64,000 nucleotides of DNA from an uncultured virus (IMG/VR IMGVR_UViG_3300011375_000006) (taxonomy: Duplodnaviria > Heunggongvirae > Uroviricota > Caudoviricetes), in IMG/VR virus record IMGVR_UViG_3300011375_000006; one strand, given 5' to 3'. The notes below the pieces were generated by a model. The model had not been told where the DNA came from. It did not search any database and worked only from the letters and a program-made list of their open reading frames with translations. This document shows, in pieces, positions 45,123 through 50,409 of this stretch. The position numbers and the translations under genes were made by a program. Within the stretch, counting starts at the first letter, position 1. Each line of letters opens with the position of its first letter.

Positions 45123-45139
45123 GTTACCATTGCGGTAAC
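45123..45139. promoter_or_regulatory. TTACC-N5-GGTAA operator upstream of terS
   Basis: GTTACCATTGCGGTAAC; same palindrome at 48405-48421. Confidence 0.6.
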
Positions 45140-45156: not shown

Positions 45157-45732
45157 ATGGCGAAACGACCATCAACACAGTTTAAGCATCTGACGGTTAT
45201 CCAGGAGGCTTACTGTCAGGAGTACATCAAATCCCCTGAGAATCAGACTCAGGCGGCGATTAATGCAGGTTATTCACCCAAGACAGCCGCAAAGTTTGCC
45301 AGTCAGAATATGCGTGATGAGCGCATCCAGAAACGGATTGCTGAGTTGATGACTGAGCGTAACAAACGCCTGAAGGTCAGTGCGGATTATGTCCTGAACC
45401 GGCTGGTGGAGATCGACCAGATGGACGTGATCGACATCCTCAATGACGACGGTGGATTAAAGCCGATCAGTCAGTGGCCAAAGATATGGCGCACCACGCT
45501 GAGTGGACTGGATATCTCGACAACGATCACCAACTTCGACGAAACCACGCTGGAAAACATGCTCAAGAAAATCAAATGGCCGGACAAGGTGAAGAACCTC
45601 GAGCTGATTGGTAAGCACGTCGACGTCAACGCGTTCAAAGACCGCGTGGAGGTATCAGGCACGGTCACCATTGCCGACCGCATGGCAGCCGCCAGGAAGC
45701 GCCTGAAAGAACGGCAGGGCGGTGAACAGTGA
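45157..45732 (+). CDS. terS: Terminase small subunit (podovirus module)
   Basis: N.TQAAI.AGYS.KTA, KIKWPDKVKNLELIGKH. Confidence 0.9.
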   Translation: MAKRPSTQFKHLTVIQEAYCQEYIKSPENQTQAAINAGYSPKTAAKFASQNMRDERIQKRIAELMTERNKRLKVSADYVLNRLVEIDQMDVIDILNDDGGLKPISQWPKIWRTTLSGLDISTTITNFDETTLENMLKKIKWPDKVKNLELIGKHVDVNAFKDRVEVSGTVTIADRMAAARKRLKERQGGEQ

Positions 45733-47204
45733 CCGCCGCAGCCATGTCGCCGGAAGAGCAGCTTGTTGAAGACATTGCCAGCTTTACGCACGATCCGCTG
45801 GGATATGCGCTGTATGCGTTCCCCTGGGGCGAAGATGGCGGAGAACTGGCGCACGCTGCCGGGCCTCGCCAGTGGCAGGCTGATACATTCCGGGAAATAG
45901 GCGAGCACCTTCAAAACCCGGCGACGCGGCACCAGCCGTTGATGATTGCCCGCGCATCCGGTCACGGTATCGGTAAATCGGCGTTTATCTCAATGCTGAT
46001 TAACTGGGGCATGTCCACCTGCGAGGACTGCAAGGTTGTTGTGACCGCCAACACCGAAAACCAGCTGCGCACCAAAACATGGCCGGAAATCATCAAGTGG
46101 TCGAACATGGCGATCACCAGGGACTGGTTCACTACCACTGCAACCGCGATGTACAGCAACGATCCGGGCCACGACAAGCGCTGGCGCGCCGACGCCATTC
46201 CATGGAGTGAGCACAACACCGAAGCGTTTGCCGGTCTGCACAACGAGCGTAAGCGCATCATCGTGGTATTCGATGAAGCCTCCAATATCGCAGATCTGGT
46301 ATGGGAGGTTGCCGAGGGCGCGCTGACGGACGAAGACACCGAAATTATATGGGTGGCGTTCGGTAACCCGACGCGTAACACCGGGCGTTTCCGTGAGTGC
46401 TTCCGCAAGTATAAGCACCGCTGGAAGGCAAAGCAGATCGACAGCCGAACGGTGGAAGGCACGAACAAGGAGCAGCTCCAGAAGTGGGTGGACGACTACG
46501 GCGAGGATAGCGATTTTGTGAAAGTACGCGTGCGCGGGATATTCCCGGATGCGTCAGAGCTGCAGTTTATCCCGACAGGTCTCACTGACGAGGCGATGAA
46601 GCGCGTGGTGACCGCTGCGCAGGTGGCGCACGCTCCGGTGATTATCGGAGTTGACCCGGCTTATTCCGGCGTGGATGAAGCGGTGATATACCTGAGGCAG
46701 GGGCTGCACAGCAAAGTGTTATGGACTGGCAGTAAAACCACCGACGATCTGATTATGGCGAAGCGCATCGCTGACTTCGAGGACCAGTACCAGGCTGACG
46801 CGGTGTTTATCGATTTCGGCTACGGCACCGGCCTGAAGTCCATCGGCGACGGCTGGGGACGCTCCTGGCAGCTTGTGCCGTTCGGCGGCGCATCGACTGA
46901 CCCGCAGATGCTCAACAAGCGTGGTGAGATGTTCAACAGTTGCAAAACGTGGCTTAAGCTTGGCGGTGCGCTGGATGACCAAGAAACAGCTGATGATTTG
47001 TCGGCGGCAGAGTACAAGGTGCGGGTGGACGGCAAGATAGTTATGGAGCCGAAAGAGGATATCAGAGACCGTATCGGGCGATCTCCAGGCAAGGGCGATG
47101 CGCTGCTGCTGACCTTTGCTTTCCCGGTGGCGAAGCGGTTGCGCATTCCGGGGCAGGATGGGCAGCAGGGCCGGGCCATCACTGAATACGATCCGTATGC
47201 TTAA
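45729..47204 (+). CDS. terL: Terminase large subunit (podovirus module)
   Basis: ASGHGIGKS, FDEAS, GNPTR, GVDPA, SP..GDA. Confidence 0.93.
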   Translation: MTAAAMSPEEQLVEDIASFTHDPLGYALYAFPWGEDGGELAHAAGPRQWQADTFREIGEHLQNPATRHQPLMIARASGHGIGKSAFISMLINWGMSTCEDCKVVVTANTENQLRTKTWPEIIKWSNMAITRDWFTTTATAMYSNDPGHDKRWRADAIPWSEHNTEAFAGLHNERKRIIVVFDEASNIADLVWEVAEGALTDEDTEIIWVAFGNPTRNTGRFRECFRKYKHRWKAKQIDSRTVEGTNKEQLQKWVDDYGEDSDFVKVRVRGIFPDASELQFIPTGLTDEAMKRVVTAAQVAHAPVIIGVDPAYSGVDEAVIYLRQGLHSKVLWTGSKTTDDLIMAKRIADFEDQYQADAVFIDFGYGTGLKSIGDGWGRSWQLVPFGGASTDPQMLNKRGEMFNSCKTWLKLGGALDDQETADDLSAAEYKVRVDGKIVMEPKEDIRDRIGRSPGKGDALLLTFAFPVAKRLRIPGQDGQQGRAITEYDPYA

Positions 47205-47368: not shown

Positions 47369-47393
47369 AAAAAGCCCGCGCATCGGCGGGCTT
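47369..47393 (-). terminator. Terminator of the leftward accessory operon
   Basis: Plus strand AAAAAGCCCGC-GCATCG-GCGGGCTT. Confidence 0.7.
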
Positions 47394-47416: not shown

Positions 47417-47542
47417 TTAGTAGTCATCATCACTATCTTTCATCGCAGATCGGAAGACCAGCGCAGCGATACCTACCACAACCGCCGCGCCGCCGATGGC
47501 GAGCCACATCCACAAACTAAGTTCGCTCATGATTCGCTTCAT
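47417..47542 (-). CDS. 41-aa single-TM peptide
   Basis: MKRIMSELSLWMWLAIGGAAVVVGIAALVFRSAMKDSDDDY. Confidence 0.5.
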   Translation of the reverse strand: MKRIMSELSLWMWLAIGGAAVVVGIAALVFRSAMKDSDDDY

Positions 47543-47559
47543 CGTGACATGTCACCGCA

Positions 47560-47853
47560 TCAATCAGTTGTATTCCCGCCTATGGAAAATGGCAAGTTAT
47601 TGCTTACGAGCTCATCAATTTTATTCTGAGCGGCATCGCGTGCTTGCTGTAGCTTCTCTATAGAGGCTTTCTTTTCAGAGATGATTTTTTTTAGGCCTTC
47701 TCGCATTTCCTTATCGAAAACGATATCAATGCCGAGACCACTAAGCTGGATTGTTTTCCCTTGTTCAGCGCGTTCAACAGCGCCATGTAATGCAGACAAT
47801 TCATAGCACAAGTCATCGATTATTCGATCAATGTTTCTTACGGAGATGGTCAT
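47560..47853 (-). CDS. Hypothetical coiled-coil protein
   Basis: AAGGTG RBS before MTISVRN. Confidence 0.6.
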   Translation of the reverse strand: MTISVRNIDRIIDDLCYELSALHGAVERAEQGKTIQLSGLGIDIVFDKEMREGLKKIISEKKASIEKLQQARDAAQNKIDELVSNNLPFSIGGNTTD

Positions 47854-47865
47854 GGTTATCACCTT

Positions 47866-48405
47866 AAAAAAATGCCCGGCGAACCGGGCGAACAAAAGCC
47901 AATGGGAGTTACGGGGTTTACAACAGAAAGCCATCGCGATGACGTTCTGGTGTAAAAAGGGCGGCATCAGGAAAGGATTCAAAAAAACCTGTGCCGCCAA
48001 GATTTACACTGGTACTGCGTTATCACGGTCCTAAGCGTGATTCTGTCGTGGGCCAGATGCTTATCTTCTGGTTGCCTCAATGGGCTGCAATTCACCACAA
48101 CGGAAAGAGCACTGACTTCGAGCAGACCTTGCGCGCAGGAACGACGATCAATCTCAATGCTTTTACCTGTTGCGTCCTCGTCTCTTCCGAGGTGTCACAC
48201 CGTACCGCCACGATGGTGAGTCGTTGGTTCGTGCTATGACCCGATGGCTTGCACATTCCGGCTACCCGTTCGGGGATAAGTAACATCAAGGAACCCCGTC
48301 GGACCGCTGCGACGCATGTGCCATACGCCGTACATCTTGCCGGTTACGTCTCCGGCGAGGGCTTCCACCTCTCGTCTGGCTTTTCCACGCAAGCGCGTGC
48401 TTGTG
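47866..48405 (-). ncRNA. ~540-nt multi-module structured non-coding transcript (candidate sRNA array)
   Basis: Bounded by a TTGACA-N17-TACCTT promoter and GCCCGG-TTCG-CCGGGC-ATTTTTTT terminator; tiled with stems; no credible ORF. Confidence 0.7.
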
Positions 48406-48442
48406 TTACCTAAAAGGTAATAATTACACCGTAATATGTCAA
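48405..48442 (-). promoter_or_regulatory. Strong sigma70 promoter with overlapping operator
   Basis: TTGACA (48442-48437), 17-bp spacer, TACCTT (48419-48414); GTTACCTAAAAGGTAAT covers the -10. Confidence 0.75.
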
Positions 48443-48510
48443 TACCCTACGCTAAATAATCCTTATGTGGTTAAATTGGTAATAATTTAATCGTGTGCGG
48501 AGTCATTGAA

Positions 48511-48717
48511 ATGTGCATGGGTAGCTCACCATCAGTACCGGCAGCGCCGGAAATCCAGGCGGCACCGCAGGAGCAGGACGCGGCTGTTGTTGCATCCCGC
48601 GACGATGAAATGCGCCGCCGTCGTGCCGCAGCAGGCCGCAACTCCACGCTGCTGACCGGCGCACAGGGTGACACCTCAGCCGCTAATACCAGCGGTAAAA
48701 CGCTGCTGGGCCAGTAA
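48511..48717 (+). CDS. Small protein preceding the portal gene
   Basis: MC.G..P.VP, RRR..AGR.ST.LTG, GKTLLGQ. Confidence 0.75.
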   Translation: MCMGSSPSVPAAPEIQAAPQEQDAAVVASRDDEMRRRRAAAGRNSTLLTGAQGDTSAANTSGKTLLGQ

Positions 48718-48726
48718 GGGATCGTC

Positions 48727-50409
48727 ATGGCCGGGACAAACGAAACCATCAAAGAGCAATTGCTGAAACAGTTTGCTCAACTGGAAAATGACCGGTCGTC
48801 ATTCGATCCGCACTGGCGCGACCTCACTGATTTCATCAACCCTCGCGGCTCACGCTTCCTCACTTCTGAGGTGAATCGCGGCGAGCGGCGCAACACCAAA
48901 ATCGTTGACCCAACGGCGACCATGGCAAACCGGACACTGTCCAGCGGCATGATGTCCGGCATCACCAGCCCGGCCCGTCCGTGGTTCCGTCTGGCGACGC
49001 CTGACCCTGACATGATGGATTACGGCCCGGTTAAGCTGTGGCTCGAAATCGTGCAGCGCCGCATGAACGACATGTTCAATAAGTCGAACCTTTACCAGTC
49101 ACTGCCCCTGCTTTACGGCAGCCTGGGCACGCTGGGCACCGGCGCTATGGCTGTGCTTGAAGATGACGACGACATTATCCGCACGATGATGTTCCCGATT
49201 GGCAGCTACTGGCTGGCAAACTCTCCACGCGGGAGCGTTGATACCTGCTTTCGCAAGTTCTCAATGACCGTTCGTCAGATCGTCATGGAATTTGGCCTGG
49301 ATAAGGTCAGCACGTCAGTTAAAAGCATGTGGGAGTCGGGCAACTACGAGCAGTGGATCGAAGTGATGCACTCTGTTTTCCCGAACATAAACCGCGATAC
49401 GGCAAAGCTCGACAGCAAAAACAAGCTGTATAAGTCCGTCTATTTCGAGGTTGGCGGCGACAGTGACAAAGTGCTGCGCGAATCAGGCTACGACGAATTC
49501 CCCATCATGGCGCCGCGCTGGGAAGTCAACGGCGAGGACGTCTACGGTTCATCCTGCCCTGGCATGATTGCCCTTGGTCAGGTTAAAGCCCTTCAGCTTG
49601 AGCAGAAGCGCAAGTCACAACTGATCGACAAAGCCACTAATCCGCCTATGGTCGGGCCTTCATCGCTTAAAAACCAGCGAGTTTCCCTGCTGCCTGGCGA
49701 CATCACGTATATCGACCAGATGGGCAATCAGGATGGCTTCAAACCTGCTTACCTGGTTAACCCGAACACGGCCGACCTGCTGGCCGACATTCAGGATACG
49801 CGGCAGGTGATCAACAGCGCCTACTTCGTTGACCTGTTCATGATGCTGCAGCAAATCAACACGCGCTCAATGCCGGTTGAAGCTGTTATCGAGATGAAAG
49901 AGGAAAAGTTACTGATGCTCGGTCCGGTTCTGGAACGTCTCAACGACGAATGCCTTAACCCGCTGATTGACCGCGCTTTCTCGATGATGGTGAAAAAGAA
50001 CATGCTTCCTCCGCCTCCGGATGTGCTTAGCGGCACGCCGCTGCGCGTGGAATACATCTCCGTTATGGCGCAGGCGCAGAAGTCTATCGGCCTGTCCAGC
50101 CTCGCCAATACCGTGACGTTTATCGGTCAGCTTGCAGCGGCGAAACCTGAAGCGCTCGACAAGCTGAACGTGGATCAGGCGATCGACACGTTCGCCGACA
50201 TGTCCGGGGTATCTGCAACGGTCATCCTTCCTCAGGAGCAGGTGAACAAAATCCGCCAGGACCGCGCACAACAGCAACAGATGCAGCAAAACGCAGCCAT
50301 GGCAATGGCGGCGGCGCAGGGCGCCAAGACTCTAAGCGAAGCGCAAACATCAGATCCAAGCGCACTGACAGCGCTCACCCGCGCAGCGGCGGGAGGTAAT
50401 CAGCAATGA
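48727..50409 (+). CDS. Portal protein (T7 gp8/epsilon15-like)
   Basis: GITSPARPWF.L, EEKLLMLGPVLERL..E.L.PLI.R, VEYIS.MAQAQK. Confidence 0.93.
   Translation: MAGTNETIKEQLLKQFAQLENDRSSFDPHWRDLTDFINPRGSRFLTSEVNRGERRNTKIVDPTATMANRTLSSGMMSGITSPARPWFRLATPDPDMMDYGPVKLWLEIVQRRMNDMFNKSNLYQSLPLLYGSLGTLGTGAMAVLEDDDDIIRTMMFPIGSYWLANSPRGSVDTCFRKFSMTVRQIVMEFGLDKVSTSVKSMWESGNYEQWIEVMHSVFPNINRDTAKLDSKNKLYKSVYFEVGGDSDKVLRESGYDEFPIMAPRWEVNGEDVYGSSCPGMIALGQVKALQLEQKRKSQLIDKATNPPMVGPSSLKNQRVSLLPGDITYIDQMGNQDGFKPAYLVNPNTADLLADIQDTRQVINSAYFVDLFMMLQQINTRSMPVEAVIEMKEEKLLMLGPVLERLNDECLNPLIDRAFSMMVKKNMLPPPPDVLSGTPLRVEYISVMAQAQKSIGLSSLANTVTFIGQLAAAKPEALDKLNVDQAIDTFADMSGVSATVILPQEQVNKIRQDRAQQQQMQQNAAMAMAAAQGAKTLSEAQTSDPSALTALTRAAAGGNQQ

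Follow-up and report, generated by a model that had tools for sequence, protein, structure and literature searches.

A stretch of DNA of 64,000 nucleotides (nt) from an uncultured virus (IMG/VR record IMGVR_UViG_3300011375_000006), here called the window, carries at positions 47866-48442 of the minus strand a non-coding transcription unit, read here from its sequence and from homology. The unit lies between the large terminase gene and the genes for a 74-amino-acid gp3-like protein and the portal protein, in a prophage of the epsilon15/phiV10 type, and its elements of interest are all on the minus strand. At its centre is a core RNA of ~165 nt (48166..48335), which is a real structured RNA. 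Our favoured reading, to which we give roughly even chances, is that the unit specifies a repressor-controlled polycistronic RNA precursor built on the plan of a temperate-phage transfer RNA (tRNA) operon, which would be cut into stable RNAs and be read through into two cargo genes. An earlier reading of this DNA by a model, made without database searches (the sequence-only reading), had proposed an array of seven modules here; all seven were present on the minus strand, close to where it had placed them.

The core RNA comprises helix P1 (loop GGCAC), helices P2/P3, helix P4 enclosing P5 and P6 (loop CUCACCA), and hairpin P7 (CCUCG-GAAGAGA-CGAGG), with a pseudoknot between a CACC loop and GGUG. 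Because folding of the whole stretch gave a z-score of just -1.9, with 3 of 100 shuffled sequences folding equally well, the case for structure rests on covariation. A search with a 26-base anchor from the 3′ part of the core returned at least 120 viral contigs. The 105 distinct cores were reduced to 55 representatives (at most 95% likeness), and 53 of these were aligned with MAFFT after exclusion of two length outliers (L085, 208 nt; L094, 131 nt). RNAalifold predicted 30 pairs from this alignment, 11 of them with compensatory changes, while helices 7 and 8 were invariant by construction, as the search anchor covers both. When the pseudoknot was included, giving 34 pairs, 98.3% of the alignment cells were paired, compared with 32-45% when the 3′ partners were slid by 1-3 columns. 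Pairs changed on both sides numbered 11, against 2-5 in the slid controls, and the observed covariation score was reached by none of 500 shuffles.

A second scan required a different base in GGUG, and in all 68 variant types that it returned the loop was either CACC with GGUG or AACC with GGUU. In the AACC/GGUU lineage the P7 stem was CCUGG/CCAGG instead of CCUCG/CGAGG. This linked switch fits both the pseudoknot and P7, and would represent a single evolutionary event. In addition, frequent G-U pairs in the core (e.g. columns 15-31, 18-28 and 156-164) are compatible with an RNA from the minus strand only. Compensatory changes among homologues, which the sequence-only reading had named as the way to check its proposal, were thus found in the core RNA. 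The window core scored 169.6 bits against a covariance model of the family (R1), at full model length and with all helices intact, the second best among the sources tested; the score is partly so by construction, the window core being part of the R1 seed alignment. The Rfam scan that had also been proposed returned no match to the core region (48030-48345) even at an E-value of 10 and no family at gathering score in the window, leaving one sub-threshold DicF match, described below.

Stop-free frames of up to 98 codons occur in the region, frames of 83-98 codons overlap it, and the records of several relatives annotate a 'hypothetical protein' over it, as might be expected of a protein-coding gene or pseudogene. 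However, the spacing of conserved blocks was not kept in multiples of three. Among the 53 non-redundant homologues the distances from core block A to block B fell into all three residues modulo 3 (23/18/12), as did those from block B to block C (27/16/10). Likewise, lengths of insertion and deletion runs relative to the window were 1 modulo 3 in 123 cases and 2 modulo 3 in 56, with only 4 divisible by three, and the substitutions in helices were compensatory. By these comparisons the stretch is not a conserved open reading frame (ORF), in agreement with the claim that it holds no credible one, and we find a coding origin scarcely credible.

Matches to the core RNA were found by blastn in 81 phage records and in 1620 of 5426 complete Escherichia coli genomes, 116 of these last matches covering at least 80% of the core. 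The whole unit had matches in 910 plasmid records, of which 878 were non-mobilizable. The R1 model scored 170 bits in the lambdoid phage mEp390, 123 bits in mEp460, 123 bits in a Shiga toxin (Stx) 2a phage, 114 bits in P1 and 106 bits in the P1-like phage D6; the P1, D6 and Stx-type copies, at 106-123 bits, were outside the seed alignment. The P1 core (L254, 3252-3440) is unannotated and sits between trnI and ban. In mEp390, mEp460 and the Stx2a phage (Stx2a_1447), the core lies ~30-150 nt after a pL-type promoter next to cI and is followed by a DicF-like terminator and the first ORF. An early promoter just upstream and terminators downstream thus accompany the core in the window and in these three lambdoid phages, which is not true of P1 and D6. 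No N annotation was found on the first ORFs after the unit (three in the Stx2a_1447 locus L127, two in L004), no N-family search having been made. Phage epsilon15 holds a core fragment only (L005, 1217-1295, minus strand): a deletion joins the P3 loop of the core to the 3′ strand of a DicF-like hairpin, with loss of the spacer hairpin and of the slot that follows it. Separately, the Stx2a_1447 locus carries, at 128-316 on the minus strand, C4 antisense RNA and isrK at full Rfam score beside an antirepressor gene.

The modules on either side of the core are also shared with other phages. Upstream, the 5′ leader was folded into hairpins (48336..48405), and 56 nt of it (within 48336-48412) are 89% identical to D6 (L129, 585-638), where they stand just upstream of tRNA-Asn; the block is also present in P1. 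This leader is absent from the three relatives in alignment A1. Downstream lies a long spacer hairpin, P8 (48099..48172), read from the sequences and running from CAAC-A-GG after the core to CC-GUUG before the next element. At the base of P8 the window has AAAAGCA/UGCUCUUU; the corresponding stem is AAAGGCG/CGCCGUUU after the D6 core, UAAGGGUA/UACCCUUA after the D6 tRNA-Thr and UAAGGGCG/CGUCCUUU in the P1 leader. Judged from these variants, the spacer hairpin is a real helix whose sequence can change. Its 3′ strand, together with GUUGUG, was present in 74 of 83 loci. The epsilon15 record annotates a spacer-type hairpin upstream of the core as 'RNaseIII, mRNA processing'. The stem that had been called ribonuclease (RNase) III-like from the window sequence belongs to a hairpin family with one annotated RNase III site.

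The spacer hairpin is followed by a minimal tRNA-like element (48048..48098), which was folded into an acceptor-like stem GUGG/CCAC with two hairpins (loop AGAUAAGCA). Neither ARAGORN nor the Rfam tRNA model called a tRNA in the window. The element is 90% identical to a segment of D6 (L129, 876-925) located after tRNA-Thr, and matches to this short form, at 81-92% conservation, occur in 58 phage records, P1 and P7 among them. In 22 of the 83 loci with full flank the same slot is occupied by tRNA-Arg(UCU), which scored 68-73 bits in L001 and L002. The element belongs to a family of tRNA-like scaffolds consisting of GUGGUG, a hairpin GCGCA-GGCUGA-UGCGC, a variable middle of 0-150 nt, a hairpin GCCGG-AGAUCAGCA-CCGGC, and CACCAC; the window holds the shortest form, which lacks the variable middle. 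A decayed tRNA-Arg was considered as its origin and rejected, since the element starts with GUGGUGAAU like the scaffolds that are not tRNAs and has 90% matches in P1-type phages. Taken together, the tRNA-Arg(UCU) in the slot and the modules shared with the D6 tRNA operon favour, by homology, the claim that the array is a precursor of several RNAs.

Other occupants of this slot were also recorded. The scaffolds of L008, L065 and L110 fold into a full cloverleaf with an anticodon-like loop CUUUUAA, as in tRNA-Lys(UUU), and were not called by ARAGORN. In L032, L081, L036, L024 and L111 the variable insert contains GAUGGUGAGGUAAUGGCUCACCAUGGCGACGA, which resembles 16S ribosomal RNA (rRNA) at ~254-282 (for L032, 29 nt at 90% identity, BLAST E-value 2e-4). 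In L003 (1893-2007) and L045 the slot holds a tRNA-like gene of 115 nt with normal D and T arms, an anticodon loop of 11 nt and a long extra arm, annotated in RefSeq as a pseudogenic tRNA-Gly. In L030/L086 (~37-58 nt after the core) and in L080, a short hairpin and a canonical boxA, GCUCUUUAACAA, stand in place of both spacer and slot; the boxA part in L030/L086 is identical at 21 of 22 nt to the boxA of the E. coli rrnH 16S-23S spacer (L133, 2638-2659).

Among the closest known systems is the ban operon of P1 (NC_005856.1), whose annotation gives a C1-controlled operator (Op72), a 'dicF-like region', trnA, trnT, trnI and ban. In D6, the corresponding order begins with leader, tRNA-Asn, tRNA-Thr, spacer hairpin, minimal tRNA-like element, spacer hairpin and scaffold. 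It continues with tRNA-Ser(UGA), spacer hairpin, scaffold, tciA and tciB, a tRNA(CAU), the core, spacer hairpin, scaffold and protein genes. The tRNA with anticodon CAU (L129, 2331-2406) abuts the core on its upstream side and is missing from the annotation of the record. As in the window, a repressor-controlled promoter is followed in the P1 operon by a long non-coding array and then by protein genes. The core RNA is present in both, and the window leader and tRNA-like element, at 89% and 90% identity to D6, have copies in P1/P7. The features of a ban leader in the window are thus a promoter that is repressor-controlled by annotation match, together with the shared leader, spacer and tRNA-like modules. 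In contrast, no functional tRNA gene was called in the window, unlike in the tRNA operons of the ban leader, and no intact tRNA is present; its core comes first and not last. It further differs in being carried by an epsilon15-type podovirus with a different repressor and operator, and the P1 core is unannotated. Because leader, core, spacer and tRNA-like modules are common to D6 and P1, the array in the window reads as the same kind of unit as the P1 ban operon, with its parts reordered and placed in a podovirus accessory slot. The statement of the sequence-only reading that it knew of no description of such an array was therefore too strong, as the P1 ban operon is annotated with the same layout.

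The interval between terL and gp3 in epsilon15 (AY150271.2) and in phages of the phiV10 type resembles the unit in its position between terminase and portal genes, its promoter and its operator, and the epsilon15 record marks it with sites for RNase III and for a repressor and with a terminator. Relatives of the phiV10 type differ in having tRNA-Arg(UCU) in the slot where the window has the tRNA-like element. Epsilon15 differs by its deletion from the core to the DicF-like hairpin, whereas the window has the full core and a different leader. Promoter and operator, the tRNA in relatives, the RNase III site and the dicF-like region of P1 are therefore already annotated. The core, spacer hairpin and tRNA-like scaffold families are not in Rfam 15, and no description of them was found in a literature search that did not include the primary papers on epsilon15, HK639 put and the P1 genome.

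The promoter and operator (48406..48442, minus strand) were read from the sequence. The leftward promoter has the -35 element TTGACA (48437-48442), a 17-nt spacer and the -10 element TACCTT (48414-48419). It had been described as near-consensus, which holds for the -35 element but not for the -10 element; the latter matches at 3 of 6 positions, and the promoter was absent from the output of a consensus promoter scan. The block of promoter and operator is 86-88% conserved in 69 fetched loci and was kept in all four sequences of alignment A1. Over the -10 element and the start site lies the palindrome TTACCTAAAAGGTAA (48406-48420), of which the window has two exact copies. The palindrome agrees at 16 of 17 bases with a site annotated 'repressor, lysogeny' in the epsilon15 GenBank record, so that control of the unit by an operator is likely; the proposed operator over the -10 element is thereby confirmed as a palindrome, and its control by a repressor is backed by the epsilon15 annotation. 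According to that annotation, control of this kind is already known for the epsilon15-type phage group. The second copy of the palindrome, TTACCATTGCGGTAA (45124-45138), stands just upstream of an ORF (45157-45732) that is followed directly by the terminase gene, which suggests that late genes are under direct repressor control.

At the 3′ end of the unit, several conserved hairpins precede the cargo genes, all on the minus strand. The hairpin AAUCACG-CUUAGGA-CCGUGAU (48022..48042) was present in all 17 sequences of alignment A3, with one compensatory pair. It is followed by a DicF-like intrinsic terminator (47954..47998) with the stem GGCGGCACAGG/CCUGAUGCCGCC, a 16-nt loop and then CUUUUU. 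Sequence past this first terminator is conserved and folded in the A3 alignment. Here RNAalifold predicted a hairpin UUUACACCAGA...UCUGUUGUAAA (47917..47956), which shares the U-tract of the DicF-like terminator and in which pair 132-151 is AU in 8 of the A3 sequences and GC in 8. A second intrinsic terminator, GCCCGGUUCGCCGGGC with U7 (47867..47889), was almost invariant in all 17 sequences. The terminator that had been proposed at the end of the stretch was detected by a terminator scan at 47874-47889; the scan was too strict to be used for counting, as it missed the DicF-like terminator of the Stx2a_1447 locus.

The sequence-only reading had taken the array to encode Hfq-type base-pairing small RNAs (sRNAs) with pyrimidine-rich seed loops complementary to Shine-Dalgarno sequences (anti-SD), possibly aimed at messenger RNAs (mRNAs) of the host, of its defences or of rival phages. 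The sRNA DicF pairs with ftsZ and other target mRNAs, and some regulators are known to derive from the 3′ trailers of tRNAs. Like DicF (RF00039), the hairpin at 47954-47998 is a GGCGG...CCGCC terminator hairpin that ends in a U-tract within a prophage early operon, and a dicF-like region is annotated in the equivalent P1 operon. However, the Rfam DicF model scored 27.9 bits at 47959-48012 (minus strand), below its gathering threshold of 48, and gave no match at an E-value of 0.1 in the loci of four relatives or in the P1 region. The 5′ region and the loop differ from DicF and vary among relatives, in which the stem is kept and the loop is variable. The most conserved part of the unit, the core, is a compact pseudoknot and not a seed followed by a terminator. 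Of the proposed seeds, AAUCCUUUCCU and AACUCCCAU fall where relatives differ in sequence or have deletions while keeping the stems, and UUCCUUG is instead part of a structural loop in the core RNA. The Hfq/anti-SD idea is thus not supported, because its proposed seeds are not conserved, and we judge it distinctly improbable.

A further alternative is that the unit is a cis-acting leader for antitermination, in which a core comparable to put, a boxA-like sequence, or both would make transcription resistant to terminators and Rho and thereby allow expression of the cargo genes. In its favour, the core follows closely after a pL-type promoter in mEp390, mEp460 and Stx2a_1447. Two terminators stand between promoter and cargo gene in the window, with no promoter-like site for the cargo. 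The put RNA of phage HK022 works in cis, through the beta-prime zinc-binding domain of RNA polymerase. In HK022 and HK639, as for the core in some of its settings, the early-left operon of a lambdoid phage without an N-like first gene opens with a structured RNA. However, put is ~70 nt long with two stem-loops (as given in an excerpt of PMC9378689), whereas the window core has ~165 nt, 7 helices and a pseudoknot. The R1 model had no match at an E-value of 10 in the HK022 loci (L130, L131) or in the HK639 locus with an annotated putL-like RNA (L132). Moreover, the cores of P1 and D6 are far from the promoter, more than 2 kilobases downstream of that of ban and after the dicF-like region.

The evidence from boxA is similarly divided. 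BoxA is single-stranded for binding by NusB/NusE. The 3′ strand of P8 holds UGCUCUUUC (48103-48111), which agrees at 8 of 9 positions with the rrn boxA, UGCUCUUUA, the lambda form being CGCUCUUA (both as quoted in an excerpt of PMC2724277). In L030/L086 and L080 the spacer gives way to the short hairpin and canonical GCUCUUUAACAA described above. Against this, in the window the boxA-like bases are not single-stranded but paired, as the 3′ strand of the spacer helix, and D6 has the compensatory AAAGGCG/CGCCGUUU in their place. The UGCUCU of the boxA-like sequence was kept in most of 52 variant types, with variation in the next bases. Finally, epsilon15 lacks the core but keeps the downstream gene, and the P1 region is non-essential in the accessible portion of one study (PMC10695390). 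On balance an antitermination leader appears rather unlikely.

The unit might also derive from a phage tRNA operon that is decaying and has lost its function in this prophage. Its slot is devoid of a tRNA or variable insert, the loop-loop complementarity of its tRNA-like element is degraded, part of the sequence ahead of its final terminator is missing by comparison with 16 relatives, and epsilon15 tolerates large deletions here. Such decay is difficult to reconcile with a core that scores 169.6 bits with every helix intact, with a minimal tRNA-like element that is 81-92% conserved in 58 phage records, and with an intact promoter, operator and pair of terminators. We therefore hold a functionless remnant to be unlikely.

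The reading as a processed operon of stable RNAs is preferred because it fits every context in which the core was found: the core always lies between neighbours of a processing type, with a tRNA or the leader on one side and the spacer hairpin on the other. Building on the anatomy, conservation, covariation and shared modules described above, transcription, processing and read-through would proceed as follows. Once the operator is free of the prophage repressor, a single transcript would start from the leftward promoter, with leader hairpins, core RNA, spacer hairpin, minimal tRNA-like element, conserved hairpin and DicF-like terminator in this order. Host ribonucleases would probably separate the RNAs: RNase III would cut the spacer hairpin, and RNase P or RNase E would act on the tRNA-like element. 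Transcription that continues through both terminators would express the two small cargo genes, and we infer that the released RNAs may act on the host machinery early after derepression.

Several observations weigh against this processed-operon reading. The tRNA-like element of the window has no T arm, and the complementarity between loops of the larger scaffolds (GCUGA/UCAGC) is degraded in it to 3 of 5 positions; it may not be a substrate of RNase P. The presumed cleavage by ribonucleases is deduced from hairpin shape and from the epsilon15 annotation. Of 19 sequencing runs with matches to the stretch, none contained half of the sampled words, and the single RNA run had a share of 0.08; contigs from four runs joined parts of the stretch to other modules, and no expression, starts or ends were seen in them. 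Furthermore, epsilon15 is without most of the core, and P1 genes around the core scored as non-essential for plaque formation in the portion of PMC10695390 that covers them; the unit is therefore dispensable in the laboratory.

Around the unit, on the plus strand, lie the large terminase gene (45729-47204), the gp3-like gene (48493-48717, 74 amino acids) and the portal gene (48727-50409; Pfam Head-tail_con, E-value 1e-181). On the minus strand, cargo gene 1 (47560..47853) encodes 97 amino acids with no Pfam or PHROG match; its ATG follows directly after the second terminator, via AAGGUG, and the consensus promoter scan gave no promoter-like site between the RNA unit and this gene. Cargo gene 2 (47417..47542) encodes 41 amino acids with a hydrophobic stretch, and a terminator (47372-47393) follows it.

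Stable RNAs that are not tRNAs have a precedent in the tRNA gene cluster of phage T4, which encodes two stable RNAs of unknown function that are co-transcribed and processed with the phage tRNAs. The cluster is likened to the unit here by description only, and differs from it in that T4 is virulent and its cluster is not repressor-controlled. A preprint on the Pas sRNA has, in its accessible part, late-region sRNAs as its subject and not the unit described here.

The core is a compact, pseudoknotted RNA that annotation has missed in P1, in lambdoid phages (Shiga-toxin phages among them) and in epsilon15-type prophages. In every case examined the promoter of the operon that carries it coincides with or adjoins repressor sites, annotated or apparent, whether of the epsilon15 type, the P1 ban type or the lambdoid pL type. 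If the core is indeed cut out and stable, it would be a common early product of these phages. The slot, occupied by a real tRNA or else by a scaffold whose middle is exchangeable, is a natural place to search for RNA decoys against tRNA-cleaving defence. More speculatively, and with a rather low probability in our estimate, core, tRNAs and scaffolds together might form a counter-measure kit made of RNA alone, directed against host systems that attack tRNA or translation, with the core as a mimic or sponge of a conserved host factor, or as a ribozyme. The core would then be a new class of functional phage RNA made early after derepression, and the middles of the scaffolds, which include an arm like that of tRNA-Lys and a look-alike of 16S helix 11, would be part of the kit. 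As P1 carries the core in E. coli K-12, the question can be put to the test in a standard system.

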